Below are positions 3,107-64,000 of a stretch of 64,000 nucleotides of DNA, piece by piece. The translations under genes and the position numbers were made by a program. The notes under the pieces were generated by a model that saw only the letters and a list, made by a program, of their open reading frames with translations, did no database searches and had not been told where the DNA came from. Location of the stretch: the NCBI GenBank assembly GCA_973895155.1, contig OZ316893.1:26152798-26216797 (forward strand), given 5' to 3'. Each line of letters begins with the position of its first letter. The first letter of the stretch is position 1. This DNA is from Marsupella aquatica (lineage: Eukaryota; Plantae; Marchantiophyta).

Positions 3107-4683
3107 TTAGGCTTGCCGAGGTATAGAAATATCCTCCAATTTCAGCCCTGTATGCTTGCATATAGTTTCCAGAATCTTCGTCTTCTCCCGTGTTGCAAAG
3201 GACTCGACAAGCTGCCCATCTTTGTAAAAATGGAACATGGGTACAGCCTGTAACATTAATGAAACCCAGCCAGGTATTAAGTCTCCATTCTTTTAAACGG
3301 TGAAAATTAGGAAGGAGAAAACATCGACTCCATGTCATAAGAGACCTCCTTCAATATCAAATTGTCATGCAGAAAAGAAATCGACTAAGTTTCAGGATTT
3401 TTTTGCCCGAGAACCTCTACTCTCTTCCCTGCTATGCTTCTCTTTTCTTCGCTTCTCCCATCAAGACTTAACCCAACAACAGGCTGTACCGAGCACCATG
3501 GAAGCCCAACTCACCCGTATTTTCAAGCTTTCTGCAACCTCCGACTGCTCCTCGAATTCGTCCATGACCTGAATTCAATCCACCCAGTTCAGTTCAATCC
3601 AGTTCAGATGACCCACCAAACTTTAGATTTCCCTAAGAGTCAATCCGTGGGCACAATCTGTTTCATATTTGGTCGAATTGACTATCGGACTGGTCAACAG
3701 CAACCCATGTTGCATACATTGGCATACATGTGCCGTCTGGATGGCGCTCTATGGTCTTCATTGAAAGATACATCTACGTTTTTGCTATCTTCAGTAGGGA
3801 TGTGCTGCAATTATCACCGAAGAGGTCAGTCAAGAACCTCAAAAGAGCGGAGGCCTCCCGGGTATCTTTGAGTGCAAGATTCGTAAAATGGGTTTCTGCC
3901 ATCACTCTCAAGGTTGGGGCGTTCACTACAACAGAGAAAGAAAACCCTGAAATCCGGTACCCAAAGAATAATGAACATGGTGGTCGTCTCATCTCGTAGA
4001 TAAGACAGATTTTAAGATCCAAATCGAGATGCGTGTTTCAAGGCCAAACTTCAACTGGCGCATCCTGAGAGCAGAAAAGATAAGTGCGGAGGAAGTGTCT
4101 TTGGAGAGGAAGCTAAGCTTACATTATGCTTCAGAAATATGACCTCGACATCAGTGTTCCCAGCACCTTTGCACAGCTTCACAAAGCCCTTCTCAATGTA
4201 CCTGCAACTTCCGCAAGCGGTTTTGAAAAAGTCTACCACAACCAGTGCTCCCTGCTCCTTGGAATACTCCAAAATTTCATCAAACTCACTCCGAGATTTG
4301 AATTCCCGAACACATTCCACCGGACAGACCTCAGTGTCATCATCCTCGTTCTCCTCTTCTTTATCAACAGCAGGTTCTCTCGTTATCTTGATTGCTCTTG
4401 CCGGCTTGCCGGCAGCCCTCCTTGAAAGACCACCCAGGGCCGCCTGCTGGCCAAAGTCGGAAATGGAATTTGCCCCCGCTAAGCTTTCTCTCCCTACTCC
4501 GTGACTGCTGCTGCTGCAACTCAGGGAACACTCACATAGAACAGGGTTGCCCTTGAACGTGACCAAATCTAACCGTGAGCGTAAAAGCGGCTCCCGCAGC
4601 GATCCACGCACTGAAACTTCAACATCTCGAGTTGATTGGGGGTAATTCCTGGGAAAACAAGACGATAGCGCCACGACGGCCAT
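3107..4683 (-). CDS. Chloroplast thioredoxin-like protein with atypical CGSC active site (thioredoxin-like 4 / Lilium type); exons 4683-4123, 3568-3515, 3247-3107
   Basis: Ser/Arg-rich transit-like N-terminus, then CPVECVREF...VVVDFFKTACGSCRYIEKGF...IFLKHN/VMDEFEEQSEVAESLKIR/AVPMFHFYKDGQLVESFATREK. Introns are GT-AG phase 0. Confidence 0.92.
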
Positions 4684-5712
4684 CCGTTTTATACCAATCT
4701 AATAGTAGAGCGCTCTACCAAAGTATTCACCATCAACCGGGTCACATGGACTCCAAAAGGCCACGGTATTATAGCAATTTAGAGGAATTTCCACTGATAG
4801 GAACCCTAGGACGCAAGAGAACCTGCTACCTTGCCTGCCAATTGGTCTTCAGTTTTCGAAATCTCTGTTCACAACCAACTTGCCCGGCCTGTAGACTGAC
4901 CTTCAGAGCTCGAAATGTCCATTCGTTCAAATTGCCAGCCCAACTCCCAATTGGGGTTGTCCAGGAAGTTGATGGACCCCTCTTGTCCGAAGGGGAATCG
5001 AGGACAAATACTAATCCAATCTGTCTGCCTTATCGCCACCCCAGGCAAACTCCTGGGTGATTCAATAAGCTCCAAAGGCCAGGAAGAAGAGCCTCAACCT
5101 GGGAATCACTTCCACTTCAAGCTCTAAAAACCAAGACAATCATGAAAGTAATCGCACCAGTTTGCATTCACCTTCCTTCTCCTATTCCTGTATGGCAGAA
5201 GAGAGATCCACGAAGAAGAAATCCCCAAACCTTGCTTCGCTTTGCTTTCAACAGATTCGAGGAATTCCTTCAGATCTAGAGTAGCTTTCTTCAGGGCCTA
5301 ACGTAGATTGTGCAATCAAGATCTGGAGCTGCTTGCTCGCTGGATCTCAAGGTGGGCCTTGCTTGTCTCCCTAAAATCCTTCTTTCTCCTGAAAAGTAGT
5401 GCACCTCAGGTGATCCATGTGGCCTTTGGTCTGCTTCGTTCATTCTGTCGACAAGTACCCTCCAAGAGATCCTGAAGACACCAGGGAAAGAAGGGAAAGA
5501 AGGGAAGGACATTATTCCCCTGGTAATTCTATGATGGGTGGCTGCCTAAATCTTGGCCAATCTGATTGGCAGGTATGGTAGGGTATAGGTAGGTGGTTTC
5601 AACAGGTGGCTTGTGTACAGGAAATTATTATTATTAATTTATTTTGCCAGATGGCGAATGGAGGTTGTTAACCCCATCATTTTTAAATCACCCACATCGG
5701 GAAGCTTAGTTG

Positions 5713-6859: not shown

Positions 6860-7144
6860 GAGGTTTCCAAAATTGGGCCTACACAGTGTTGAGCATAGAC
6901 GACGATCGCAACGGCAAGCCCATGAACCATCCAACGCACAATAGTCGACACAAGAGATACGTGGTTCACCTCCTTGAGGCTACGTCCACGGGAACACACA
7001 AGAGAGCTTTACTGAACTCTAAGCCCGTCGGCTATACCGAGTCTCCACAGTGTAAGCTCTCCCTATCTCTCAAGTGGCTCCATAACAATGAGCCTTGGTT
7101 CTACCTCTCCAAGCACACATGCCTCTTATGATATAGTGTGCAAC

Positions 7145-7305
7145 ATAGTTGTACCTAACCACATAGTTGTACCTAATCACGTAGTTGTACCTAACCACAT
7201 AGTTGTACCTAATCACGTAGTTATACCTAACCACATAGTTGTACCTAATCACGTAGTTGTACCTAACCACGTAGTTGTACCAACCCACGTTGTTGTACCA
7301 ACCAC
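7145..7305. repeat. 18-bp tandem array in U3 of the copy 1 3' LTR, 9 units of (A/G)TAGTTGTACCTAA(C/T)CAC
   Basis: Units counted directly. Confidence 0.95.
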
Positions 7306-7534
7306 GTCATACCTAACCTAGACGTAAGAGTAAATACCCAACAATCTTCCCCTTGACTCTGGTCTAGGGGAGAGTAATACTGCCAATGTATATGATCCCT
7401 CAGCGGGAAGTTCTGGACAAAAACCAAACCGGTTTCCCTCTCTAACTAGAGCAAACCAGAACTAAGCCGTAGCCTAATACATAGGAATGAGGAAGAGCAT
7501 ATATCAGTAATTACAATGAATGTTTAAGAAAACT

Positions 7535-10500
7535 CTACTTGTGATGCAATTGCAAAACCTGCAATACGTCACGGTGTCTAGAGAAACTCTCCAAAGGAAT
7601 CACTTTGGTAAATGCGTCAGCCGGGTTGAGTTTACCATCAATCTTGACTAGCTCAAACAATTTATCAGACACAGCCTGCCTGATAAAATGGTACCTGACG
7701 TCAATGTGCTTCACTCTGCTGTCCATCACCTGGTTCACAGCAAGGTGGAGCGCACTTTGACTATCACAATGGAGCTTCACATTCCCCTGTGGCAATCCCA
7801 TTTCAGTGATAAGTCTATCCAACCAAATCGCTTCCTTTGCTGCTTCCGCAGCTGCAACATACTCCGCTTCTGTAGTAGACTGAGCAATACACTTCTGCAA
7901 AGTAGACCTCCAACTTATGCATCCACCGCCAAGTGTGAACACGTATCCTGTTGTTGATCTCCTTCGGTCCAAATCTTGTCCATAGTCAGAATCTACATAG
8001 CCAATCAATGATCTAGCATTCTTTGCATTCGCATCAAATAAAAGACCATGATCCACGGTACCCTTCAAGTACCTGATAATCCACTTCACTGCTTCCCAGT
8101 GTACCTTCCCTGGATTCGACATGTACCTGCTCACCTTGCCCATAGCCATGGCAAGATCAGGTCTAGTGCAAGTCATCAAATACATGAGACTCCCCACTGC
8201 CTTGTCATATGGAACCTTTGACATCAACCCCTTCTCTGTGTCATCCGTAGGACAGAACGCTGATGATAACTTGAAGTGTGGAGCCAACGGGGTACTTACT
8301 GGCTTGCTATTCTCCATGTTGAACCTTGCAATTACCTTCCTCGCATAACTGCTCTGCGTCAACCATAGCTTGCCAGCCTCCAAGTCCCTAGTGATCTCCA
8401 TACCCAAAATCCTCTTAGCTGGCCCTAAGTCCTTCATCTTAAACTCTGCACTAAGCAGTGCCTTGAGCTTAACAATCTCAGACCTATCCTTGGCTGCAAT
8501 TAGCATGTCATCCACATAAAGTACTAAAACAATGAACCCAAAGACAACATTCTTCACCGGTTTCAAATACACACAAGGGTCAAATACACTTCTGTGAAAA
8601 CCTTGTGACCGAATCCAATCGTCAAACCGCTTGTTCCACTGTCTTGGTGACTGCTTCAACCCATACAAGGATTTCAGCAATCTGCAAACCAATTCCTCCT
8701 GTCCTCTCTTCACAAAACCTAGCGGTTATCTCATGAAGATCACCTCTTCCAATGTGCCATAGAGGAAAGCTGTGACAACATCCATCTGATCTAGGAGCAG
8801 ACCAAACATTACAACAAGTACACACAATAGTCGTATTGTAGAGTACTTAGCAACTGATGAGAAGACCTCATTGTAATCCACACCTTTCTCTTGTGTGAAT
8901 CCCTTTGCTACCAATCTAGCCTTGTAGACCTTCGATCCACCTCCTATGGAATTATCCTTCAACTTGTAAATCCACTTGCTGTCCACCACTTGCTGATCCT
9001 TAGGCAGCTTAACAAACTCCCAAGTTTTGTTGTCCTTTAGTGACTGCATCTCTGTTTGCATTGCTGCAGTCCACTTCTGCTTCTCCTTTGAAGCACTTGC
9101 CTCATGAAATGAAGAAGGTTCTCCTTCTTCCAAAATTAACGCATCACCCTCATCATCAGCTGTAAAATCATCCTCTTGCAGTTGAGATGAATCAACCCAC
9201 TGTCCATACCTTGATGGAGCGCGTACAGTGCGACCAGATGTTCTTCTAGCCGATGACTCCGGTTGATTTGCGTGTGCTGGTACAATTTGAAGCTCAACAG
9301 CATCCACTTGCTGCTCACCAGCATCAACAAACTCCTCTGGTTCCTCTGGCACAGGAACCAGCTCCATAATTGGAGCAACTCCTTCTCTCCGGTCATGCAC
9401 CTCATAACCAATCTCCCCCTCAACGAGATCCGGGATAGGAGATTTTCCTTTGTCAGTACGGGAGACCTGAGTATTCTCCCCCTCCTTCAATAATCTGGAT
9501 TCATTGAAGGAAACATCCCTACTGACAACGAGCTTACAGGCAATAGGATCCCATAGCCTATAGGCTTTCACACCACTCTGGTACCCAAGAAAAACACATT
9601 TCCTGGAGGTAGGATCCAACTTGGTCCTATTCTGCTTTGGTGTGAGAGCATATGCATCACTTCCAAAAATTACCAAGCCATGATAGTCTGCTTGCCGCTT
9701 ATAGCGCATCTCAAACGGCGTTTTGAAATTGATAGCACTAGAAGGGGAAAGATTTACCAAATAAGCTGCGGTATTGACAGCTTCTGCCCAAAATTCTTGT
9801 GGTAAACCTGATTGGCTCAACATACTCCGTGACCGCTCCAACAGTGTTCGATTGAGCCTCTCAGCGACACCATTCTGCTGCGGAGTATAAACTGTGGTGA
9901 GATGGCGAGTTATCCCCTGTTCTGAACAGTACTCTTCAAATTCCATTGAAGTATACTCCCCGCCGTTGTCTGACCTCAGACTCTTCACCCTTGTATCCAA
10001 ACACTTGATCGTGTTTCCAGTCTGATTCTCCACCTGGGCCTTCCACTTCTTAAAAATGGACAAGACATCAGACTTATGCGTCATGAAATAAATCCACACA
10101 AATCTTGAGTAATCATCAATAAATGATACATAGTACAACTTTCCAGAGTGTGAGGGAGTCGGGGATGGACCCCACACGTCACTATGTATGTACTCAAGAA
10201 CCGCTTTGGAACGATGAGTTCCAACACCAAAAACACGACGATGCTGCTTTCCAAGAATGCAATGCTCACAAAACTCTAATTTACAAGATTGCAAATCAGA
10301 AATGAGTCCATTCTTCCGTAAGATAGCCAAACCCTTCTCACTCATGTGGCCTAGCCGTGAATGCCACAGTTGAGTCATCTCCTCGTGAGACTTGGTTACA
10401 TTGGCCTCTCCACATACAGTATTGCCCTGTAACACATACAAATTCTTTTGTCTACTCCCCTTCAAAATCACTGTCTCTCCCGACCTGACTTGAAGTTCAC

Positions 10501-11842
10501 CATCAATAACGCTCCATTGATGACCATTTGAATCCAACACACCGAGTGAAATCAGATTCTTACGCATGCCAGGTACATACCTGACTCCGGACACTGTGCG
10601 CACAGCGCCATCAAACATTTGAATCTTCACAAACCCAATTCCCTCAATTTGACAGGAGTGATCATTTCCCATCAGAACTGAACCGTTTGAAATAGAGTAA
10701 GAACTGAAAAACTCACGAATGTAACAAATATGAAAAGAGCAAGCACAATCAAGAATCCACACATCATCTGCTCTCCTAGATGACGTGCACAGGGCATACC
10801 CCCGGCTTCATAAAACATACTCATCATTGAGTAAATCAGCTTCTCCATCAGCCCTAGCCACATTTGCCGATGAAGTTTCCGCTGCCTTTCCCTTACAGTC
10901 TCGCTTGAAGTGTCCAACTTGGTTGCACTTCCAACATGTCACATGCCTCCTCTGAGGGGATTTACCCTTGGACTTAGATCTGGATTTAGATCTAAACTAG
11001 GTTCTACGGTCCCCAGTTGGTCGCTGCATACTCCTCCCACGGTTAACATTGAGGGCAACACCAGATGATGAAGGCTGTGACGTGATGTGCATCTTCTGCT
11101 GAAGATCATCACTAAGCAGAGAACTTACCACGTCATTGTATGAAATGGTATCCCTATCACGATGCAACAACACTCGTGATAGGGACTGGTAAGATGGAGG
11201 CAATGAACTAAGAAGCTGCAGAGCCTTCGTCTCATCATTCAAAGTCTCCCCAAGGTTTTCCAAGTCAACGACCATGTCGTTGAAAGCATCCACATGGTCT
11301 TGCAACTTCGTACCAGATTCCTTCATCCTGAAACTCATCAGTTTGTAGGAAGTGTAGAGCCGGTTCGACAACTCCTTGCGGTGATACTTGCTCTGCAATT
11401 CCGCAAATAAGGACATGCAATCCTTATGTGCACCCAACTGCTTGATGATGGGAGGCATGAGATAGAGTGTAACACACCACACTCCCTGCTCCTGCATGCG
11501 GTCCCATTGTTTCTCATCAACATCGTCTTCACGAGGGCTCAGCAGTTGGCCCATCCCTGACGCATAAAGCACTCCCTTCACCTGCTTCTCCCATAGCAAG
11601 TAGTCAGAGCGCCCATCATACTTTGTCACTTCATACTTGGGTCCCCCAAGCTTGAAAGTCCCCATCTTCTTCTTTACCGTGAGCTCCGGTAGTAGTACTG
11701 CTTCCTCCACCACACGCCGCACCGGTGATGGTATCGGTGTCACGTGCTCTTCCTCCTGCTCCTCTCTCTGCCCCTGAAACCTCCGCGGTGACCCTCGTGC
11801 TTCAAGTTCCACGTCTTCGAAAAACTCCTCCGAATCACTCAT
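7535..11842 (-). pseudogene. Copia gag-pol of copy 1: one frame with copy-specific stops at 10997 (TAG, in gag) and 8726 (TAA, in RT) plus the shared TGA at 10808-10810
   Basis: Protease WILDCAC, integrase HSRLGH...CEHC and HSDVWGP...RSDNGGEY...QQNGVAER, RT YVDDML, RNaseH YVDSD...EAEY...CDSQSA. Confidence 0.93.
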
Positions 11843-12699
11843 ATGAGAAAGTCACAAAAAATGTTGTTTTTCACAACTTCTCAAAAAACTCGAAACTCAA
11901 CACCGCCGCGTAGCCCACAAAGCTAGGAGTCCAATACTGAAAACCGAAATCAAAATCAAAATTTGACGGAAAAGTTATTCAAATTTCGGTCGAGGTGGGT
12001 AAAACCTTGGGAAACTCCCCCGTTTTGACCACCTCAGGGAATAACCGAAATACCAAGTACAACCCGTTGTCGGAATTGCGATGTGATTGGTGCGCTGCAT
12101 TGCCAACTTCAATGGCTACGACCTCGCCGAAAAATAACCAAAAAAGTTATCGTTCGGCGGATGAAATCTTGGTCGGACGGTCAAAAAATAGCTCTCTGGT
12201 TTTTTGGAATATTCTATGACCCTTGTACAGGCCCTGTGGGAATTTTGGAAGAACAATCGAGGGGCTGACATGTGTCCTCGAACCCCCAAAACCCCCTACC
12301 ACCCTTCGTCGTCGAAATCTGGTCGCGCGCGCAGAAAATACACACGGCAGAATGTACCCCTCGACACCAAACGCAAGATATCTCACTCGGGTTTTGACTA
12401 AATCAAGATCCGATTTCAGATTACCATGCTCTGATACCAATTGTTGAGCATAGACGACGATCGCAACGGCAAGCCCATGAACCATCCAACGCACAATAGT
12501 CGACACAAGAGATACGTGGTTCACCTCCTTGAGGCTACGTCCACGGGAACACACAAGAGAGCTTTACTGAACTCTAAGCCCGTCGGCTATACCGAGTCTC
12601 CACAGTGTAAGCTCTCCCTATCTCTCAAGTGGCTCCATAACAATGAGCCTTGGTTCTACCTCTCCAAGCACACATGCCTCTTATGATATAGTGTGCAAC

Positions 12700-12878
12700 T
12701 TAGTTGTACCTAACCACATAGTTGTACCTAACCACATAGTTGTACCTAATCACGTAGTTGTACCTAACCACATAGTTGTACCTAATGACGTAGTTGTACC
12801 TAACCACATAGTTGTACCTAATCACGTAGTTGTACCTAACCACGTAGTTGTACCAACCCACGTTGTTGTACCAACCAC
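12700..12878. repeat. 18-bp tandem array in U3 of the copy 1 5' LTR, 10 units
   Basis: Units counted directly. Confidence 0.95.
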
Positions 12879-13009
12879 GTCATACCTAACCTAGACGTAA
12901 GAGTAAATACCCAACACACAGGTGACAAAGGTATTAGGTGTCATATTCAACAACTAGTGGATCCTTTTTCTATCTAAGATGTGGAAGCTGCATGATTGGA
13001 TCATATATA

Positions 13010-15180: not shown

Positions 15181-18100
15181 ATGGTGAATCTTTCGGAGAA
15201 CGAGGGCATCGAGAAGCGCAGATTTGTGGTGACCGGCGGAGCTGGCTTCGTTGGCAGAGCGCTGTGTTTGGAGCTTGCCCGCCGTGGTGCTGCTGAGGTT
15301 GCTCCTTTGCCTTTCTCCCAATCACCCAACCAGCCTGCTTGTTTCTCTCTTTCAATCGTCCTGCCTTCTCCAACCCTTTGTGGGTCGCTCTCAATTCCTC
15401 ACTTACCCAACTCAGCAGCTCGTGTGGGTCGCTCTCAATTGTCCTTGCTTCCCCCAACTCAGCAGCCCTTGATGGTCATTCTCAAATTTCCTTACTTCCT
15501 CTAATTCAGTAGCTCTTGTGGGCCTCTCTCAATTGTCCTTTTACTTTCTCAACTCAGCAGCTCTAGTGGGTCTCTGTGATTCGTCGCTCAATTTTCAAGT
15601 AACCGATGGAGACACAAAAGTCTCTCTCAATTGTCCTTCTCAACGGACTTTTTCTGTCAGGTGAAGTGTGTTATCTCTTCTCTACTCTGCTCTGTTAACT
15701 TGAATCGACGAGTCCGATGTTCTCCAGGTAACAATGTTCGGATATGAGCTGGATGAAATTTGAAAATGACGCTTCGATTCGGTAATTGAATTTGGAACGC
15801 CTAGAAGGGGCACGTGGTTGGGCGTCCAGAAAAACCAACGTTCATAGTTCTGATTCAAAAGGGTCAGGTTTTAAACAAATTACTGGGAATATTGAGGATT
15901 CTTTAAATTACCTGATCGATGAGGAGGAATCTCATGGACGAAATTGCTCAGCAGTTTCGAGAACTGTGTGGATTTCTAATGATCAAATGGCGATTCGAGG
16001 TTAAGCGTTCTCGGTGCCCCTTTTTGGGACCGTGCAATTCGCGTTCCAGATTTGTCGAAGGTGGTGTGTGACATTGGCCAATTTAAAGAGCTCCAGTAGC
16101 TTTCCTCCTTGTCACTCATCCACTTTAGGGTGATCGTTTTCATGTTCAATGTAGACAACATGGGTGTGACATGCTATGGCATACTTTCAGTTTGACCGTC
16201 TGTATGTTCTGACCACCCTGACGACTGAAGTACACAAAATCCAATCCTTTTCGTGCTGTCCTTGTTCTCCTAAAACTTAACTGTCGAGTCGTACAAGAGG
16301 AACTTTTGTGATATAATCCCTTGTGAGGAGGAAATCTTGCTTCTGAATTAGGACTACTTTGTGGTGTATTTACAGGTTCGATCGTTTGACAGAAATGCAT
16401 CACCAGCGATCATTTCTCTACTTCAGAATCATGGAGTTGTTTGTATGGATGGTACGTAGCCAACCTAAATTTTGGTTCATTTGTGATCACGTCACTGACT
16501 TTGAATTTGACCTACATATTTGCATGCAATTCTTGTGGCTAAGTGTAGCCACAGTAGAAACATTATGGGGTTCTTCCCTAATGCGGCGAGGGATGTCCTT
16601 TCAAGGAAGGCCTTCATGCACATAGATGCTCTTTATTTGAAAAAAGAAGGTTTCCTGAACTTCGAGGCAAACGGAAAGAGGCTGGAAGGGTATCGTATTT
16701 GAGATTGATGAATTTAAGTTGTTGTGGGTGTGGTTCAGGTGATGTTAGACGTAGAGAGGATGTCGCAAAGGCATTCAAACACGCCAATTGTGTGTTCCAC
16801 TTGGCATCCTTTGGTATGTCAGGGAAGGAGATGTTGCAGACAAGGCAAATCGATGAAGTCAATTTGGATGGAACGTGCAATATTCTAGATTGTTGTGTTA
16901 CATGTGGCGTTGAGAGGCTCATATACACAAGCACCTACAATGTCGTTTTTGGAGGTAAAGAGATCATAAATGGAAATGAAGCAATGCAATATTATCCCTT
17001 GGATGATCATGTGGATCCGTACGGTAGAAGTAAGGCTCTTGCCGAACAGCTTGTGCTGAAATACAACAATCGGCCTCTCAAGTAAGCACTGTTCCAGAGC
17101 GGCTCTACTCAGACCCTTATCTACTCAATGTATGACAATTACTATGGTTCCTCTCCCGGTTTACTTGCATTTACATACTGTAACGTTATGGGTCGAAGGA
17201 TTACTTGCAGTTTGATAGCACCTTTCTGATTGCTTTGTGTCCAGTGGTTCCTAGTCCATTTACTAGAGCTCCCCAAAGCGATCCTCATTTTTTCTCAAGC
17301 ATTCTTCATCTGGTGTAGGAATAGAGAAGGGCGAAAATTGTACACATGCGCGTTGAGACCAGCAGCTATCTATGGCCCAGGAGAGGAGCGTCATTTCCCT
17401 CGTATCTTGAAGCTGGCAGAGCTAGGAATTTACTCGTTTAACATTGGAGGACCGGATACAAAGCAGGACTGGGTTTATGTTGATAACCTTGTTCACTCTC
17501 AACTGCTGGCAAGCATGGCTCTTCTGGATGATATCCCTGACAGAGGGATGAATGCTCCTGCTGCAGGCCAGGCTTATTTTATATCAGATGGTAAGGATTT
17601 TTTCAAAAACCGAAACCTCTTCTTGTTATATAATTTTCCTTGTAAAGTGCGTCCTCAGCACTTGATAATTGTTATTGTATCAATTCAGTCATTTGCTGTG
17701 TAAAACTTCCTTCATCATGCCTTTAAATTATTAAAGGATACGAGTCTCTGACCTGAGTTGGGCGTGCTCGATTGAGTTGGATGATTCTCATGTATTGTAG
17801 AAGGCACTGGAAATGACATAATCGTTTTTGGAGGGACTGAGAACTGGAAATGGAACGAAGAGGCAGTATTAGTTCAGAGAGGTTTTTGATGTGAAAGAGT
17901 GACTTAGAGAAGTGTGCATTGATATTCTTTAGTTGCACCGGAGGCTTGCATGCACAGCTTCCATCAGGTGGTTTTGTTAAATATAATGGATAAATAACAG
18001 CTAGAGAATTCATTAAAATATAATATTTCCAACGTATAGTGATATGAACTAATTTATTTTGGGACGTTATTGCGCGTGCCCAATATTCCACCGGGGGTGC

Positions 18101-46166: not shown

Positions 46167-48048
46167 GGTATCAATTTAATTCAAGGAGACGAGTCCCTGG
46201 AACAGCATTAAGTGTACCTTGGGACTTCCCCACAACCTACAGGAAGGAGCACCCTGAGTTTTCCCCTTTTTGCACCCATCTCTTTTCAGGCCATGACCTT
46301 ACTCTCGCTTCCCCGGGCTCCCTCTCAATTAGAGACTTAACTTAATTCAACATTCTTATCCCCTCTTGTGTAGTGTCTTTTTCCCTTGCATGTGTTTGTG
46401 GGAGTATTTGTTTAAATTTATTGGACTCCATGGAGGCAATCTTTTGACAATAGCTGACATTCTATTTAAATTTTTTGGACTCCATGGAGAGTTCCCGGGT
46501 ATTGTCCTGGTTTTGAAAAAAAATTAAAAATTTCTTGGACTCCATGGAGGCAATTGTCTGACAGTAGCTGACACATTTTGACCAGTTTTGCAAAGTCCGG
46601 CCCCAGTCTTTTAGTCTTTGATTTATGAGGGGTTGATGATTCAGTGCAAGATCACCTGAGCTCAAACTCTTGCTATTAAATTCTTCCTCAGTTCATGGTT
46701 GTATTCCACACCTTCCAGATGAAACAAATGCATTCATGTCTAACTTGTAATTGTGCCCAACTTTGTAACTTTAGTATTTCAAGGGAGCACAAACACTAAA
46801 CTCAAAAGAACATACACCATTGCTAATCCCAAAACCTGAAAAAATGAGAAAATTAAAAATTATCACCTACTCATACGGCTAAACTATTGTAGAACCAACT
46901 CCCTAGGAAAAGCAATTTTCAATTCAACCATCAAATTGGATTTTGAAACAATTTCTCTTTTGAAAGTCAGTGTAATGATGAATATAATAGCAATTTTGAT
47001 TTTCTGATATATCCATTTCTTTAATACTTCCTGAATTTCTCCACAGTAGTACTGTAGAGTTTACAAACGTCCACAAGGCTACGAATTTACTGATGGTTAT
47101 AACTTTGATTCTTTATTGAGCACTTTATCAGCCAAATGTTTTTTAAATTAGATATATTAGTATATCATCTCCATTCATTAGAGCTAAATTTAAAAAGAAA
47201 AACAAATGGGTCGCCATTTTTCTTTATTCTAAGGCTTGAGCAGTAAGTATGACTACTGTAGTTTACATCTGAAATGATTATCTCCATTTTTTTTGAATTT
47301 GATAGATCATTTTGGTTTCAACCCCCTTGTATCTTACATCTGGAATATAAGTATGGTCTAAAAAATGCATGATTACAGACTCAAAGTGCTCAGGCTCCCA
47401 TAAAGGTTACACAGTTAGGCACAATTACAAGCTAGGCATGAATGCATTTGTTATTCATCTGGAAGGCATGGAATACAAAGATGAACTGAGGAAGAATTTA
47501 GTGGCAAGAGGTTGAGCTCAGGTGATCTTCCACTAAAAGGATGAACTGAGGAAGAATTTAGTGACAAGAGGTTGAGCTCAGGTGATCTTCCACTAAATAA
47601 TCAACCCCTCATAAATCAATGACTACAACTAGACTGGGGCAGGACTTTGCAAAGCGGGTCAAAATGTGTCAGCTACTGTCAAATGATTGCCTCCATGGAG
47701 TCCAAGAATTATTTAATTTATTTTTCCAAAACCAGGATAATACCCGGGAACTCTCCATGGAGTCCAAGAAATTTAAATAGAATGTCAGCTACTTTCAAAA
47801 GATTGCCTCCATGGAACCCAAGAAATTTAAACAAACACTTCCACCACAGATGCAAAGGAAAAAGGCACTACACCAGAGGGAGCCAGTCTCTAATTGAGAG
47901 GGAGCCAGGGGCAGCGAGTGTAAGGTCATGGCCTGAGATGAGTGCAAAAAGGGGAAAACTCAGGGTGCTCCTTCCTGTAGGCTGTGGGGGAGTCCCGAGG
48001 TACAGTTAATGCTGTTCCAGGGACTCGTCTCCTTGAATTCAATTTACC
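46167..48048. mobile_element. Foldback/MULE-like element with ~600-bp inverted arms (~46167-46773 and ~47401-48048) around an AT-rich spacer
   Basis: AATTCAAGGAGACGAGTCCCTGGAACAGCATTAA and its exact reverse complement, with colinear similarity along the arms. Each arm has TTGGACTCCATGGAG-type subrepeats, and the right arm has a 60-bp tandem duplication at ~47480-47597. Confidence 0.85.
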
Positions 48049-53186: not shown

Positions 53187-56143
53187 GATATGATCAAATA
53201 CTTGGAACCTGTGTTATTTGTAGTGATATAAATGTTGTTTGATATGGTGTAAAGTGAATGATGACTTTAATGAGTACATTTCAAACTGCCAAAACAAAAG
53301 GTGTCTAACAGTGGGACATAATCCCTCAGACAAAAGACCCAATCAAGGGGAGGCAACCAAAGAGCCAAAAACCTGAAGGACCGCACTAGAAGCCCAGCCC
53401 AACAACAGCTGGGACAAAAAAACTAAAACCCTACCTATTGGCAAATGAAGGGTTAGGTAGAGTTTTGGTGTGAACTGCATAGGAGTGTCACGCAAATGAA
53501 TCTGACTAGAGGCCCTAAAGCCAACTAGTTCACCCCTACAAGGAAAGTTGAAGGCCTGAGCCCTTTGAAATGTCACATACACCCACTCTCTAAAGAAGGT
53601 CATGATCACAAACACCAGGGGATAAGGCCTCCTCTCCACATAATCAACTGTGCAAGAACGCATGAAAAGATCAATGGTCCAGTGTAACTCCCCAAAGAGC
53701 TCCATGGCAAATGGGTAGAATAGCTCCCCGGAATAACACATAGCATAAGCTTACTCCTTAAGTAGAGTAGCTCTTGCAGCGGCATGACCCAATACGTGGG
53801 CAGCTATGGCAACATTGGTCCCACTAGTAGAGTCCGCAACAATCACATCCCCAAAGACCCAACCATCCCGCACAAAAAAAAACCATATTAGTGTGACCTT
53901 CATCAGAAACCCCATCCGAGGGAAACAACACATGTGGATAGGGCCAACTAATCCATTCCAGCTTCTTAGTGCAATTCGAAAGATAAAATGTCATCAAAAT
54001 TTATGACACTTCAATTGAAAACTAGTCCGCTAATAAAAACCCGATCGTCCGTACGACTCCTTAAAACTTTGTATGATCCAATCTTTTTCCCAAAATTAAC
54101 GTTCAATGGCCCTTCTTTTGGTCAAGTTGCAGACTCCAGGAATGGAAAGAAAGATGACCGGACGACACCGAAAGTCTAAAACTGACCAGACCGCACCATT
54201 CACTCAATGACATAATTATTACTGACTGACCAGACCGATTCGCCGCTGTGCCCTGCCGGAAATAGAAGCCCAGCCCGCGACGGGATTGCCACGCTGGGCA
54301 GCCGAGCGGGACGGGGCAGCGTGAAGCGAGAGGCTCCGGAGACCGTTTTGCGTACGGGGACAAAAGAAGTGGAGTAGGAATAACGTGCCGTACATTCGCG
54401 AGGGCCCACCAGGACCAGAGAGTACCGTATGGACGTATGGTACAGAATCTGGGCTACGGAGCTGACGTAGTGACGTAGTGACCAGTCCGGCGGGTACGGG
54501 GGGTAGAGTCACAGCCCTTGGCTGTGGACGGGCTAGGAGCGTGGTGGGCCGCAGGGCCTTGCCTGCCCATCTTTCCGAAATATTCCCAGCCCACTCACGC
54601 TTGGCCCTGGCCCCCTACGCCTGTCGCGGGCGCGACTCCCGCGAAACCATTCGGTGCCCGGCCCCGCACCCTGGCCTGGCCTGGCCTGGTACGGCAGATT
54701 CCGCATGCACATTCCCCCCTTTTCGTTTCCGTACGGGAGGCGGGCTGCCGACATTACGGTTAACGGAGTGACTGTAGCCCGGGTTAGAAGTGAAGTAATA
54801 ATAATAACCCTGTTCCACTGGGATAGCCTAGCGGGATAACTTTTACCTGTAAGAAATAGATGATGATTAGAATTAAATTCAGAACATGATTGTCGATATG
54901 AGATATCAACAAGGCGTCTCAAATACGTCCATTTGATAGCGTTTCAAATAAGTTCAATTTTCTGTTTTTGATTGAACGCGGGCTATGTGGTGGTTCGGGA
55001 TAACAATCATGACTGGTCGAGCATCAGTTGTGAAGATTTACCAATCATGCCTGGGACAATCTCAATTTCACAATAAACATAATAACATTCAGTATATTGT
55101 GAGGTCACTCATTTGTCTGTACACCAAAAGTTTACCCTGTTACGGTGCTCCTGACTTCCTCACTTCCTCACGGGCCTCCCGTAAGGTGCCAATTTTTTTG
55201 GTTTTTGAGATGCCCTAGTGAAGTAAAAAAGGATGGTTGACTCACTCGTGGTTTTCCTTATTTGTGGGTGAGTACGAGGGATATTTGACCATGGTCTTTA
55301 GAGAAATGGAGAAATGGTTTGCCCAGTTGCAAGCATATTGGGCCACTCTTTTGGCATGAAACATTTTTCTCCCAGGTCATAAAATTTCCCCTAATGTAGC
55401 AGGGCTGTGCTTTGATGGCCATCCATCTCCAAGGTTGCAGGGCTTTGTTTCAATGGAATCAAGCTACCAGAGTGTAGGGATTTGCTCTTGACTGTATATG
55501 TTTGAGTGGTTTGTGAAACCCCCTAACAATTGTGTGTGTGAGGAGGGGAGTTGTTCAGAGCACTGTAAGCATCTTGATGTAAACACTTGCTTTTCAGTGC
55601 AAGAGTTTTTTAAAGGGAAAATCAAAAATAGAAAAGAAATATTTGGGTTGTGTCCTTCTGTGGAATTAAAAATAATTTATGCTTTGAGGAAGTCCTGCAC
55701 AAACTGGCATGGCACTACAACATTATTAGTGGGAGCATCTCCACAGGCAGCCAACAACCATACAATGCAAGGGATTGAAATGGTCTCCAATTTCAGCCTT
55801 TCGCCACAGGCAGTAAGATTGTGAAACCAATGTATGTGGTTATGCAGGAATGGCCCATTGAAGTCTACCACCCACATGGACAGAGTGTTGAGCATAGACG
55901 ACGATCGCAACGGCAAGCCCATGAACCATCCAACGCACAATAGTCGACACAAGAGATACGTGGTTCACCTCCTTGAGGCTACGTCCACGGGAACACACAA
56001 GAGAGCTTTACTGAACTCTAAGCCCGTCGGCTATACCGAGTCTCCACAGTGTAAGCTCTCCCTATCTCTCAAGTGGCTCCATAACAATGAGCCTTGGTTA
56101 TACCTCTCCAAGCACACATGCCTCTTATGATATAGTGTGCAAC

Positions 56144-56304
56144 TTAGTTGTACCTAACCACATAGTTGTACCTAATCACGTAGTTGTACCTAACCACATA
56201 GTTGTACCTAATCACGTAGTTGTACCTAACCACGTAGTTGTACCAACCCACGTTGTTGTACCAACCCACGTTGTTGTACCAACCCACGTTGTTGTACCAA
56301 CCAC
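56144..56304. repeat. 18-bp tandem array in U3 of the copy 2 3' LTR, 9 units
   Basis: Units counted directly. Confidence 0.95.
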
Positions 56305-56533
56305 GTCATACCTAACCTAGACGTAAGAGTAAATACCCAACAATCTTCCCCTTGACTCTGGTCTAGGGGAGAGTAATACTGCTAATGTATATGATCCCTC
56401 AGCGGGAAGTTCTGGACAGAAACCAAACCGGTTTCCCTCTCTAACTAGAGAAAACCAGAACTAAGCCGTAGCCTAATACATAGGAATGAGGAAGAACATA
56501 TATCAGTAATTACAATGAATGTTTAAGAAAACT

Positions 56534-59500
56534 CTACTTGTGATGCAATTGCAAAACCTGCAATACATCACGGTGTCTAGAGAAACTCTCCAAAGGAATC
56601 ACTTTGGTAAATGCGTCAGCCGGGTTGAGTTTACCATTAATCTTGACTAGCTCAAACAAATTATCAGACACAGCCTGCCTGATAAAATGGTACCTGACGT
56701 CAATGTGCTTCACTCTGCTGTCCATCACCTGGTTCACAGCAAGGTGGAGCGCACTTTGACTATCACAATGGAGCTTCACATTCCCCTGTGGCAATCCCAT
56801 TTCAGTGATAAGTCTATCCAACCAAATCGCTTCCTTTGCTGCTTCCGCAGCTGCAACATACTCCGCTTCTGTAGTAGACTGAGCAATACACTTCTGCAAA
56901 GTAGACCTCCAACTTATGCATCCACCGCCAAGTGTGAACACGTATCCTGTTGTTGATCTCCTTCGGTCCAAATCTTGTCCATAGTCAGAATCTACATAGC
57001 CAATCAATGATCTAGCATTCTTTGCATTCGCATCAAATAAAAGACCATGATCCACGGTACCCTTCAAGTACCTGATAATCCACTTCACTGCTTCCCAGTG
57101 TACCTTCCCTGGATTCGACATGTACCTGCTCACCTTGCCCATAGCCATGGCAAGATCAGGTCTAGTGCAAGTCATCAAATACATGAGACTCCCCATTGCC
57201 TTGTCATATGGAACCTTTGACATCAACCCCTTCTCTGTGTCATCCGTAGGACAGAACGCTGATGATAACTTGAAGTGTGGAGCCAACAGGGTACTTACTG
57301 GCTTGCTATTCTCCATGTTGAACCTTGCAATTACCTTCCTCGCATAACTGCTCTGCGTCAACCATAGCTTGCCAGCCTCCAAGTCCCTAGTGATCTCCAT
57401 ACCCAAAATCCTCTTAGCTGGCCCTAAGTCCTTCATCTTAAACTCTGCACTAAGCAGTGCCTTGAGCTTAACAATCTCAGACCTATCCTTGGCTGCAATT
57501 AGCATGTCATCCACATAAAGTACTAAAACAATGAACCCAAAGACAACATTCTTTACCGGTTTCAAATACACACAAGGGTCAAATACACTTCTGTGAAAAC
57601 CTTGTGACCGAATCCAATCGTCAAACCGCTTGTTCCACTGTCTTGGTGACTGCTTCAACCCATACAAGGATTTCAGCAATCTGCAAACCAATTCCTCCTG
57701 TCCTCTCTTCACAAAACCTAGCGGTTGTCTCATGAAGATCACCTCTTCCAATGTGCCATAGAGGAAAGCTGTGACAACATCCATCTGATCTAGGAGCAGA
57801 CCAAACATTACAACAAGTACACACAATAGTCGTATTGTAGAGTACTTAGCAACTGGTGAGAAGACCTCATTGTAATCCACACCTTTATCTTGTGTGAATC
57901 CCTTTGCTACCAATGTAGCCTTGTAGACCTTCGATCCACCTCCTATGGAATTATCCTTCAGCTTATAAATCCACTTGCTGTCCACCACTTGCTGACCCTT
58001 AGGCAGCTTAACAAGCTCCCAAGTTTTGTTGTCCTTTAGTGACTGCATCTCCGTTTGCATTGCTGCAGTCCACTTCTACTTCTCTTTTGAAGCACTTGCC
58101 TCATGAAATGAAGAAGGTTCTCCTTCTTCCAAAATTAACGCATCACCCTCATCATCAGCTGTAAAATCATCCTCTTGCAGTTGAGATGAATCAACCCACT
58201 GTCCATACCTTGATGGAGCGCGTACAGTGCGACCAGATGTTCTTCTAGCCGATGACTCCGGTTGATCTGCGTGTGCTGGTACAATTTGAAGCTCAACAGC
58301 ATCCACTTGTTGCTCACCAGCATCAACAAACTCCTCTGGTTCCTCTGGCACAGGAACCAGCTCCATAATTGGAGCAACTCCTTCTCTCCGGTCATGCACC
58401 TCATAACCAATCTCCCCCTCAACGAGATCCGGGATAGGAGATTTTCCTTTGTCAGTACGGGAGACCTGAGTATTCTCCCCCTCCTTCAATAATCTGGATT
58501 CATTGAAGGAAACATCCCTACTGACAACGAGCTTACAGGCAATAGGATCCCATAGCCTATAGGCTTTCACACCACTCTGGTACCCAAGAAAAACACATTT
58601 CCTGGAGGTAGGATCCAACTTGGTCCTATTCTGCTTTGGTGTGAGAGCATATGCATCACTTCCAAAAATTACCAAGCCATGATAGTCTGCTTGCCGCTTA
58701 TAGCGCATCTCAAACGGCGTTTTGAAATTGATAGCACTAGAAGGAGAAAGATTTACCAAATAAGCTGCGGTATTGACAGCTTCTGCCCAAAATTCTTGTG
58801 GTAAACCTGATTGGCTCAACATACTCCGTGACCGCTCCAACAGTGTCCGATTGAGCCTCTCAGCGACACCATTCTGCTGCGGAGTATAAACTGTGGTGAG
58901 ATGGCGAGTTATCCCCTGTTCTGAACAGTACTCTTCAAATTCCATTGAAGTGTACTCCCCGCCGTTGTCTGACCTCAGACTCTTCACCCTTGTATCCAAA
59001 TACTTGATCGTGTTTCCAGTCTGATTCTCCACCTGGGCCTTCCACTTCTTAAAAATGGACAAGACATCAGACTTATGCGTCATGAAATAAATCCACACAA
59101 ATCTTGAGTAATCATCAATAAATGATACATAGTACAACTTTCCAGAGTGTGAGGGAGTCGGGGATGGACCCCACACGTCACTATGTATGTACTCAAGAAC
59201 TGCTTTGGAACGATGAGTTCCAACACCAAAAGCACGACAATGCTGCTTTCCAAGAATGCAATGCTCACAAAACTCTAATTTACAAGATTGCAAATCAGAA
59301 ATGAGTCCATTCTTCCGTAAGATAGCCAAACCCTTCTGACTCATGTGGCCTAGCCGTGAATGCCACAGTTGAGTCATCTCCTCGTGAGACTTGGTTACAT
59401 TGGCCTCTCCACATACAGTATTGCCCTGTAACACATACAAATTTTTTTGTCTACTCCCCTTCAAAATCACTGTCTCTCCCGACCTGACTTGAAGTTCACC

Positions 59501-60841
59501 ATCAATAACGCTCCATTGATGACCATTTGAATCCAACACACCGAGTGAAATCAGATTCTTACGCATGCCAGGTACATACCTGACTCCGGACACTGTGCGC
59601 ACAGTGCCATCAAACATTTGAATCTTCACAGACCCAATTCCCTCAATTTGACAGGAGTGATCATTTCCCATCAGAACTGAACCGTTTGAAACAGAGTAAG
59701 AACTGAAAAACTCACGAATGTAACAAATATGAAAAGAGCAAGCACAATCAAGAATCCACACATCATCTGCTCTCCTAGATGACGTGCACAGGGCATACCC
59801 CCGGCTTCATAAAACATACTCATCATTGAGTAAATCAGCTTCTCCATCAGCCCTAGCCACATTTGCCGATGAAGTTTCCGCTGCCTTTCCCTTATAGTCT
59901 CGCTTGAAGTGTCCAACTTGGTTGCACTTCCAACATGTCACCTGCCTCCTCTGAGGGGATTTACCTTTGGACTTAGATCTGGATTTAGATCTAAATTGGG
60001 TTCTACGGTCCCCAGTTGGTCGCTGCATACTCCTCCCACGGTTAACATTGAGGGCAACACCAGATGATGAAGGCTGTGACGTGATGTGCATCTTCTGCTG
60101 AAGATCATCACTAAGCAGAGAACTTACCACGTCATTGTATGAAATGGTATCCCTATCACGATGCAACAACACTCGTGATAGGGACTGGTAAGATGGAGGC
60201 AATGAACTAAGAAGCTGCAGAGCCTTCGTCTCATCATTCAAAGTCTCCCCAAGGTTTTCCAAGTCAACGACCATGTCGTTGAAAGCATCCACATGGTCTT
60301 GCAACTTCGTACCAGATTCCTTCATCCTGAAACTCATCAGTTTGTAGGAAGTGTAGAGCCGGTTCGACAACTCCTTGCGGTGATACTTGCTCTGCAATTC
60401 CGCAAACAAGGACATGCAATCCTTATGTGCACCTAACTGCTTGATGATGGGAGGCATGAGATAGAGTGTAACACACCACACTCCCTGCTCCTGCATGCGG
60501 TCCCATTGTTTCTCATCAACATCGTCTTCACGAGGGCTCAGCAGTTGGCCCATCCCTGACGCATAAAGCACTCCCTTCACCTGCTTCTCCCATAGCAAGT
60601 AGTCAGAGCGCCCATCATACTTTGTCACTTCATACTTGGGTCCCCCAAGCTTGAAAGTCCCCATCTTCTTCTTTACCGTGAGCTCCGGTAGTAGTACTGC
60701 TTCCTCCACCACACGCCGCACCGGTGATGGTATCGGTGTCACGTGCTCTTCCTCCTGCTCCTCTCTCTGCCCCTGAAACCTCCGCGGTGATCCTCGTGCT
60801 TCAAGTTCCACGTCTTCGAAAAACTCCTCCGAATCACTCAT
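56534..60841 (-). pseudogene. Copia gag-pol of copy 2: gag 60841-59807 ends at the shared TGA, pol continues in the same frame with a copy-specific TAG at 58076, and the last zinc-knuckle Cys is mutated to Tyr
   Basis: ORFs of 344, 561 and 508 aa lie in one frame. CWKCNQVGHFKRDY here versus ...RDC in copy 1. Confidence 0.93.
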
Positions 60842-62253
60842 ATGAGAAAGTCACAAAAAATGTTGTTTTTCATAACTTCTCAAAAAACTCGAAACTCAAC
60901 ACCGCCGCGTAGCCCACAAAGCTAGGAGTCCAATACTGAAAACCAAAATCAAAATCGAAATTTGACGGAAAAGTTATTCAAATTTCGATCGAGGTGGGTA
61001 AAACCTTGGAAAACTCCCCCGTTTTGACCACCTCAGGGAATAACCGAAATACCAAGTACAACCCGTTGTCGGAATTGCGATGTGATTGGTGCGCTGCATT
61101 GCCAACTTCAATGGCTATGATCTCGCCGAAAAATAACCAAAAAAGTTACCGTTCGGCGGATGAAATCTTTGTCGGACGGTCCAAAAATAGCTCTCTGGTT
61201 TGTTAGAATATTCTATGACCCTTGTACAGGCCCTGTGGGAATTTTGGAAGAACAATCGAGGGGCTGACATGTGTCCTCGAACCCCCAAAACCCCCTACCA
61301 CCCTTCGTCGTCGAAATCTGGTCGCGCGCGCAGAAAATACACACGGCAGAATGTACCCCTCGACACCAAACGCAAGATATCTCACTCGGGTTTTGACGAA
61401 ATCAAGATCCGATTTCAGATTTGGAAACTAGACTCCGAGGCGATGAAGATCGATATAAGAAGCACCCAAAACGAGGAAAGAACGAGGGAGAAAAAAATTG
61501 GTAAAGATGACAGATTTCTCTCAATTGCCATAGCCAATTTCGAATCAGTTTTTCAAAGAGAAATAAATGGTACCTTGTCAACAACGAATGTTGATCAATT
61601 GCACTTGGTGCCGTCACCAAGTCCAACAAGGTAATTGATTTTGCTTAGCCTTCCTCTTTGCATCAAAGAGCCAATCCCGGACTCAAAAACAATCGTCTTG
61701 CCTCAATCTCTCCGTTGAGTCAAAACACTTGACGCTTCTCCCTCCGAGTCGATTGCCAACTTTCTTCACAAAATCCAGAACGACGAAAACTTAGATCTCT
61801 CTGCACCACGAGCTCCGTTCAACGATTTCTTCACACCGTTAGAAAGCTCTTGCCCTGATCTATCCGTTGAGCCCATAAACTCCAAGTTCCATGCGATGGA
61901 ACTCTGGAAAATCCACCAACACTCAACGCTGGAAAAACCGTCATGAAATCCCGTCACGAACATACGTCACCTCCCAAGCATGCTCTGATACCAATTGTTG
62001 AGCATAGACGACGATCGCAACGGCAAGCCCATGAACCATCCAACGCATAATAGTCGACACAAGAGATACGTGGTTCACCTCCTTGAGGCTACGTCCACGG
62101 GAACACACAAGAGAGCTTTACTGAACTCTAAGCCCGTCGGCTATACCGAGTCTCCACAGTGTAAGCTCTCCCTATCTCTCAAGTGGCTCCATAACAATGA
62201 GCCTTGGTTATACCTCTCCAAGCACACATGCCTCTTATGATATAGTGTGCAAC

Positions 62254-62432
62254 TTAGTTGTACCTAACCACATAGTTGTACCTAATCACGTAGTTGTACC
62301 TAACCACATAGTTGTACCTAATCACGTAGTTGTACCTAACCACATAGTTGTACCTAATCACATAGTTGTACCTAACCACGTAGTTGTACCAACCCACGTT
62401 GTTGTACCAACCCACGTTGTTGTACCAACCAC
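62254..62432. repeat. 18-bp tandem array in U3 of the copy 2 5' LTR, 10 units
   Basis: Units counted directly. Confidence 0.95.
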
Positions 62433-64000
62433 GTCATACCTAACCTAGACGTAAGAGTAAATACCCAACACAGAGCAGTGGAGGGAATTGGCACTAAGCT
62501 TAGATGTCAAAAAGCTCTATGCACCAGTCTCGATTTCACTACACCAGTGGGTTTTTGCTGTGTAAGCAATTCTCTCCTATTGGTGCCGAAATTTCACCCT
62601 AGTACCAAATAAATGTATATGTGGATCAATACGTGGTAAGGAATCAAGAAGAGTACTATTTGTATAGAATGTTTCTTTTATAATGGGCCACAATGAGCAT
62701 CTCAAAGGGCTGTGCCTCACGAGCAACTAATTAACTGTGCTGGCTCAAATAGAGTTACCAGATGCATGCCAATTGTCAAATCTTGGCCACAGCAAAATAT
62801 TCATGGGCTTCAGGATATAGTTTCAATAACAACTAGTTGTGTTGAAATAACACTCCTTGAGTTTCTTTTTGTCAAAGAAAAAAAACAGGGTGTAAATGGC
62901 ACTCCCAGACAATTGTTTTGCAAAATAACTGAAGTCAGCATTACTGAATTTAGTACATGTAGCGCTGCACTTAACCAGGCTTAATTCCAAACCCAACTAT
63001 GATTATGTACCATAATGGTGTTGGGCGTGTAGCTAGTTAGGGTATCTCCAACCCAACCAGATTTTGTTACTGTTGCTTGATGTTGACCAAACCCCAGTCA
63101 GTAAAGAAAATGCAAAAAGTCAGCTCCAGCCCACTCATTAGAATTCTATCAGGTTTTCAGGAATAGGTTTTTTGGGTTATTGGATCTACAAGAGATTCAT
63201 GAGTTGACTGCTTCGTGGGTTTTTTGCTAGGTTTTCAAGATTTCAAATATACAGTTGTCATGCTGATACCTGTTGTTTAGAGAAATTGCCCCATTAAGGT
63301 TGGGATGCTTTTCAGTTGCTCTGATAGTACACAAGACTGTATATTGTCAGATTGGTTAATTAATGTACCCAATAAGCAAAACCTCCTTGGGTTGGAATTT
63401 TCTTATAGCATTTGGAGCATCATCCTTGACTTCTGGCCCTCGAGTCTTGTCCCATTTTTTTTGCATTTTCCCCCTGGTTGTATTTTGTTATTTGCATACA
63501 CCCTCGTATGCACTTTACTCGTGAGCTATTATACCAGGTTTTTCAGTTTAGTGTTAGGGCTTTAGTTAACTTGCCCTAGTGTGTAACTTTGATACCTTTT
63601 TGGCCTTTGGTCCGTGCTTCCCTTGTCTTCTCTCATCGTCAAACTATTGTGGGCCATCGGCTCATAACACTATTGAAGTAATAGATTTGTATCTATGGAC
63701 CTCTTTTGCTTTTACCTTTTTTTTCTTGGTTTGGCCCTTTTTAGTAAATTTCTCCTTTTCGGCTTTAATCCAAATTAAACCTCCTAGGAGGGATATACAC
63801 ACTTTTTATATACAAAGGGACCAAACAGAGTACAAAATAACAAACAAAAGAGGGCCAAAGTGGACAAAACCAAACGAAAAAGAAGTGAGCAAAAGGGAAC
63901 CACTAAACACCAAGAAAGAGGAACTAAAAGTAAGAAATGAGCAATAGGGAACCCCTAAAAACCAAGAAAGAGAGACTAAAACTAACCCAAGCGGACCGAG

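Follow-up and report, generated by a model that had tools for sequence, protein, structure and literature searches.

Two copies of a Ty1/Copia retrotransposon in the window (the whole 64,000-nt stretch of Marsupella aquatica DNA analysed here) carry an in-frame UGA between gag and pol, and comparison with related proteins and DNA sequences indicates that this gag stop marks a clade of plant Ty1/Copia retrotransposons likely centred on liverworts. The protease encoded behind the UGA is under purifying selection in diverged elements that bear the stop. Judging from sequence comparison, we consider it probable that ribosomes now and then read through the conserved UGA and so produce Pol as a Gag-Pol fusion. 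The layout itself is known from Tca2, Tj1, and MuLV; for land-plant Copia gag-pol it was not found described, as a search of the full-text literature, outside whose scope most subscription papers lie, returned no description of a land-plant Copia element with gag-UGA-pol.

The two elements, e1 and e2, and their main features are as follows.

55886–62470, minus strand: e2, a full-length Ty1/Copia element recognised by its LTR ends, a 5-bp target site duplication (TSD) CAGAG, and its domains.
6887–12916, minus strand: e1, a second full-length copy with TSD CACAG, 98.8% identical to e2.
61996–62470, minus strand: 5' LTR of e2, 475 nt, with 18-nt tandem repeats inside.
55886–56342, minus strand: 3' LTR of e2, 457 nt.
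61982–61993, minus strand: primer-binding site (PBS) of e2, TGGTATCAGAGC, recognised by sequence and adjoining the 5' LTR.
59810–60841, minus strand: gag ORF of e2, 344 aa counted from its first ATG and containing Retrotran_gag_2 plus a CCHC zinc knuckle (about 59938–59897).
56534–59806, minus strand: pol frame of e2, with protease (WILD motif), GAG-pre-integrase, integrase, and RT.
59807–59809, minus strand: in-frame UGA terminating gag in e2, in the context YUA-UGA-AGC-CR common to the metagenome loci L001 and L002.
10808–10810, minus strand: in-frame UGA terminating gag in e1, at a junction identical to that of e2.

The insertions are young and independent, because their TSDs differ and their LTR pairs are nearly identical (3 mismatches in e1 and 5 in e2 over 457 aligned nt); the 98.8% identity between them extends across 5.5 kb. 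Both have the domain order, paired LTRs, TSD, and PBS of Ty1/Copia elements, with the Pfam domains Retrotran_gag_2, zf-CCHC, Pol_BBD, gag_pre-integrs, rve, and RVT_2 following the Copia order gag-PR-IN-RT, and RNase H was absent from the Pfam domain list for the window element. The PBS is presumably of the tRNA-Met type. Neither copy is intact, because each has premature stops of its own, one in pol of e2 (58078–58076) and two in e1 (10999–10997 in gag and 8728–8726 in RT). In both insertions the 5' LTR exceeds the 3' LTR by 18 nt (475 vs. 457 nt; 61996–62470 vs. 55886–56342 and 12442–12916 vs. 6887–7343), which equals one unit of the LTR tandem repeat and is odd, since LTRs should match at insertion. 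The leader between the 5' LTR and the gag ATG (60842–61995) is 1154 nt long with 10 ATGs, and may contain an intron or require non-scanning initiation.

At the junction of e2, gag ends with ...LLNDEYVL (last base 59810), the TGA follows at 59809–59807, and the same frame continues as SRGYALCTSSRRADDVWILD and stays open for 576 codons. The catalytic Asp of the protease lies at 59749–59747 on the minus strand. There is no in-frame ATG within the 20 codons from the stop to this Asp, and the first in-frame Met of pol, codon +46, lies 26 codons beyond it. The earlier note on this DNA had described a gag that ends in LLNDEYVL-UGA after the zinc knuckle, a frame that runs on into protease without an AUG before the catalytic Asp, and a stop common to both independent insertions, and all three observations stand, the last on an identical junction in two elements with different TSDs. 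An uninterrupted gag-pol ORF of the EVD type is absent from the window elements; they have instead the marks of a gag-stop-pol element, namely a single in-frame stop before the protease that is fixed in the family, no AUG up to the Asp, and a pol under selection. Two smaller features of this region are that the Gag end Y[AV]L is echoed by [YS]AL four codons past the stop (59822–59789, minus strand), resembling a short duplication around the stop, where fused relatives have one hydrophobic patch at the corresponding distance from WILD, and that the protease motif reads DCAC in e1 and e2 (59749–59738) vs. DSAC in L001 and L002.

A Gag protein search returned 38 proteins, and its knuckle-bearing, high-identity matches end about 41–47 residues past the first knuckle Cys, typically at DLL[ND]D[DE]Y[AV]L; among 32 hand-picked enders, 28 terminate on Leu. 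When longer proteins were sought, nine matches were obtained, all at 26–34% identity and, where named, from flowering plants, and the nearest fused relatives are annotated as Tnt1-like. The pooled protein searches, after removal of redundancy within clusters, of proteins in which no knuckle could be detected, and of alignments shorter than 150 residues, separate the relatives by identity: at 40% identity or above, Gag stops no more than 60 residues past the knuckle in 27 of 28 relatives, and below 40%, 109 of 133 run on and 24 end, with all ends as called by gene finders and the stop codon itself unseen in such records. Some of these 24 are truncated database records or come from gag-only elements. 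A profile search without a word index gave the identical split, and no fused Gag-Pol relative at 40% identity or above was found in three protein searches. In a FastTree phylogeny of 146 Gag cores, the window falls in a clade of 24 rows (support 100), 23 of which are enders; the sole non-ender is P0023, a gene model from Marchantia in which the knuckle is joined directly to mid-protease, past the catalytic Asp.

Of the enders with a named source, one belongs to Calypogeia fissa (P0006) and two to Marchantia polymorpha (P0028, P0191), hosts that by themselves make a liverwort the probable source of the window. A more distant Gag of Riccia fluitans (P0313/P0344 and P0131; R1flu_001997, R1flu_001998) at 33–38% identity ends at DLLSDEDKLHAL, and pol is annotated there under the locus tag that follows. 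The stop may predate the core clade because this distant Gag ends similarly. Calypogeia, Marchantia, and Riccia belong to long-separated liverwort classes, and horizontal transfer may be the source of the spread over liverwort genera. An Atlas search assigned the window Gag to Streptophyta Copia Gag and to nothing narrower.

Among 21 metagenome loci examined for DNA relatives, two, L001 and L002, fall in the clade, with Gag identities of 51% and 60%. Each reads CTA-TGA-AGC-CAR, followed by 16 open codons and then WILD in frame, and the junction stop is UGA in all three distinct DNA lineages (window, L001, and L002). The spacer from the stop to the Trp is 16 codons long and open in each of them, and 6 of its 16 residues are identical in all three. 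L002 has an additional premature TAG 11 codons before the UGA, which accounts for the short end of protein P0020. The YUA-UGA-AGC pattern was not seen in the other loci of the 21, L004 and L006 having TAA elsewhere. L008, which has L-TGA-S, was left out as a junction relative as it is gag-only and has no pol; at 484–1260 it holds a gag-only LTR element like P0303 and P0325, which we take to resemble TR-GAG elements. Searches of viral contigs and genome contigs yielded no relatives, and 31 matches to the junction pattern were set aside as chance, with no tblastn match.

Comparison of the window with these two relatives gave dN/dS values past the stop of 0.30 against L002 (78 codons) and 0.36 against L001 (34 codons). 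Pol proteins of the family, at 57–73% identity, are long open frames whose annotated starts are downstream Met codons, with no fusion to Gag among them. The differences between e1 and e2 in pol, 12 synonymous and 19 non-synonymous, had suggested selection under a naive binomial (p=0.025), and this signal was rejected since it disappears under a null that takes the mutation spectrum into account (p=0.23).

These results bear on the possibility that the stop arose as a nonsense mutation and that the elements, being non-autonomous, depend on single-ORF helpers for mobilisation in trans, which the earlier note had named, as a CGA>TGA change in the parent, as the alternative to its own reading. Extra premature stops in e1, e2, and L002 and the non-significant selection on pol between e1 and e2 are in keeping with this account, as is one contig from run X1 that matches the start of the protease and then shows sense codons at the expected stop site (read by eye over 30 letters, with a loose end at 59782); this contig may be an exception or have a longer spacer. 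Against these points, the stop holds one place among proteins that are 40–83% identical, no fused relative at 40% identity or above appeared in the three protein searches, and the protease of stop-bearing elements evolves at dN/dS of about 0.3. The recurrence of the stop at this place is clearly more than coincidence, and a recent nonsense mutation is very unlikely because diverged relatives keep the UGA and the sequence past it is under purifying selection. The trans-mobilisation account is effectively refuted in our judgment, and we give it hardly any credence. A stop fixed among homologs and purifying selection on pol, both named in the earlier note as checks on its reading, were found, the former as a Gag end in 27 of 28 relatives at 40% identity or above and as UGA in three of three DNA lineages, and the latter for the protease.

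Pol must be made, because pol is under selection, and readthrough is the simplest account because there is no AUG before the Asp and both frame and spacer are preserved. Under this mechanism, most ribosomes would stop at the UGA and release Gag, and a few would insert an amino acid at the UGA and continue into PR-IN-RT. Readthrough would thereby set the Gag:Pol ratio high and dispense with the splicing on which single-ORF angiosperm Copia elements rely. The predicted stimulator is a stem-loop 20 nt downstream, possibly pseudoknotted, together with the AGC-CR context, and this is the weakest step of the proposal. The known leaky contexts, UGA-C/CUAG and CARYYA (PMC10085805, PMC2194720), are not those found here, as all three distinct DNA sequences have UGA-AGC.

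It is also conceivable that Pol is translated from an RNA that has lost the UGA by splicing, through an intron whose 3' end lies just past the stop, as in Ogre elements or foamy viruses, and Ogre offers a precedent for such an intron (PMC6317226). The AG of UGAAG|C is the single acceptor-like site that the three DNA sequences have in common, and each of them has a GTAY donor of compatible phase about 811–820 nt upstream; e2 and L002 have a GTAAGT/GTGAGT donor of canonical form at -318, which would fit a CAG at +9 (place 59802) in L001 and many family copies. However, the shared acceptor is AAG, preceded by a region of 28–32% U, and the donor sites coincide with codons that Gag conserves (KYD, VVS). 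The +9 acceptor is missing (CGG) in both window copies and in 89% of run X2 depth, L001 and L002 lack a donor for a 45-nt in-frame intron that e2 could form, and the proposed splices would delete the knuckle or most of Gag. Three contig joints in the protease lack GT-AG ends and, as the runs may be of any kind, have no bearing on splicing. On balance, we regard splicing as an unlikely source of Pol.

Production of Pol separately from Gag, through an internal promoter, a non-AUG start, or reinitiation or bypass after termination, seems to us quite unlikely. The promoter route finds a parallel in a weak junction promoter in Tca2 (PMC2194720), and Sireviruses have a conserved stem at the gag/pol junction, where the mechanism is described as unresolved (PMC5009743). 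All three DNA sequences have A-UGA at the junction. The last residue of Gag is Leu almost without exception, and it is encoded by YUA in three of three DNA sequences, creating an AUG that overlaps the stop. This AUG, however, is out of frame with pol, no near-cognate start before WILD is shared and only the Ile codon inside WILD is common, and free Pol would presumably need its own route into the particle.

Readthrough of the UGA, the account we prefer, directs attention to RNA structure past the stop, where the following elements were considered.

59789–59803, minus strand: short stem CGGGG/CCCUG, which folds in the window and is not conserved in L001/L002.
59759–59786, minus strand: stem-loop of 10–11 bp starting 20 nt after the stop, a candidate stimulator based on folding and relatives.
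59732–59739, minus strand: GCUCUUUU, candidate stem 2 of an H-type pseudoknot, complementary to the 8-nt loop at 59776–59769.

The two stems were proposed in the earlier note and both fold as described there; the short stem is lost in L001 and L002, and the long stem is compatible with both. Of the 11 pairs of the long stem, L001 retains 10 and L002 retains 8; three of the changes affect one side of a pair and one affects both. Covariation, which the note had named as a check, did not exceed that of shuffled alignments: for the two stems, 121 of 500 shuffles scored as high, in an alignment of four rows of which two are near-identical, and with the pseudoknot added the count was 19–64 of 500. 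RNAalifold recovered the long stem, plus an outer helix joining the stop region to the WIL codons. Folding energy at the e2 junction is modest, with z of -2.35 for 60 nt, -0.7 for 80 nt, and -0.6 for 100 nt; of 142 windows tiled over gag-pol, at least 12 score a lower z than the junction, and the hairpin z in relatives was -1.85 (L001) and -0.61 (L002). Among close copies, for which variants were listed at places 59777–59799, the outer pairs of the short stem are often broken (places 59789 and 59799), and place 59783 of the long stem shows all three possible substitutions; no listed variant falls at 59780, a fourfold-degenerate place.

For the pseudoknot, stem 2 comprises 8 pairs in the window, with GCUCUUUU placed 18 nt beyond the stem, and 4 of 151 control windows match the loop equally well. 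At an equal offset L002 has a 6-pair run, matched by 9 of 46 controls, while 4 of the 8 pairs are in register in L001; the pseudoknot is thus strong in the window alone. Synonymous divergence (pS) after the stop is 0.42–0.46, compared with about 0.70 in gag; this does not single out the stem, because pS is equally low beyond it. Codon conservation just past the stop (6/9 vs. 36/123, p=0.03) is likewise not specific to the stem. Rfam, PDB, and ARAGORN returned nothing relevant. Taken as a model, the stem and pseudoknot are a reasonable candidate and no established signal. The strongest local RNA fold of gag-pol lies elsewhere, at about 60131–60190 (minus strand, in gag; z -5.75, -24.4 kcal/mol), 381 nt before the stop, and a second strong fold is found at about 58901–58960 (z -4.3); it is possible that these are packaging or long-range recoding elements.

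In-frame stops between gag and pol are described for Tca2 and MuLV, and one between pol and env for soybean SIRE1 (PMC2194720). Tca2 (pCal) of Candida albicans is similar to the window elements in belonging to the Copia superfamily, in its one gag-UGA-pol frame and predicted 3' structure, and in a bypass mechanism that its source describes as unresolved; in the account given there, no readthrough was obtained in S. cerevisiae from a 300-nt stretch surrounding the junction (PMC2194720). Unlike the window elements, Tca2 has a fungal host and a structure that follows an 8-nt purine-rich spacer, compared with a stem 20 nt past the stop here, and the stop here spans a clade over several plant genera. 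Moloney MuLV shares an in-frame stop before the protease and, downstream, a stem with a loop able to pair with sequence further 3', a pairing that is a candidate in the window (PMC2194720), but it is a retrovirus with UAG, a short purine-rich spacer, and readthrough measured at about 5%, whereas the window elements have UGA, a 20-nt spacer, and predicted readthrough. Tj1, Tosmo1-3, and Tcry1 of fission yeasts have a conserved, clade-wide in-frame TGA at the gag-pol junction as well (PMC10085805); these are Ty3/Gypsy elements with the leaky GAA-TGA-CT, in contrast to YTA-TGA-AGC in the window.

Recoding in plant Ty1/Copia elements is represented by SIRE1, with its in-frame stop suppression, and other Sireviruses (PMC2194720, PMC5009743). 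Unlike in the window, the SIRE1 stop lies between pol and env (PMC2194720), and Sireviruses have gag and pol in +1 or non-overlapping frames, with the conserved stem there (PMC5009743). Plant Copia elements are mostly single-ORF and obtain excess Gag via a spliced short RNA (PMC5580714). EVD and Tnt1-like single-ORF angiosperm Copia elements share domain order and a Met-type PBS with the window elements, yet they have one unbroken ORF and Gag from the spliced short RNA, whereas in the window unspliced RNA would give Gag by default (PMC5580714). The REXdb survey gives two-ORF layouts for Bianca and Ogre (PMC6317226), and its main text has no mention of Marchantia or liverwort.

If readthrough is confirmed, it would be the first for land-plant Copia gag-pol and would imply a non-canonical signal working on plant ribosomes. 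If the clade reverses the single-ORF, spliced-Gag logic of plant Copia, the Gag:Pol strategy was switched within land plants. We tentatively put forward the fuller scenario, which we hold to be somewhat doubtful, that a single-ORF ancestor gave rise to an ancient liverwort Copia clade with independent gag-pol readthrough, using a new UGA-AGC signal and a retrovirus-like pseudoknot 20 nt downstream. How a gag UGA that does not look leaky is bypassed is a question shared with Tca2, and it is directly testable, as members of the clade are present in the model plant M. polymorpha. Automated annotation misses the gag-UGA-pol layout because the stop resembles decay and the gene gets called as two.

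Outside the two retrotransposons, the window contains a long foldback at 46173–48044 with inverted arms of about 600 nt that are about 90% complementary; it is likely a DNA transposon of the non-autonomous kind. A 3-beta-HSD/epimerase gene of the host has exons at 16582–17703 on the plus strand, and a weak thioredoxin match lies at about 4054–4698 on the minus strand.
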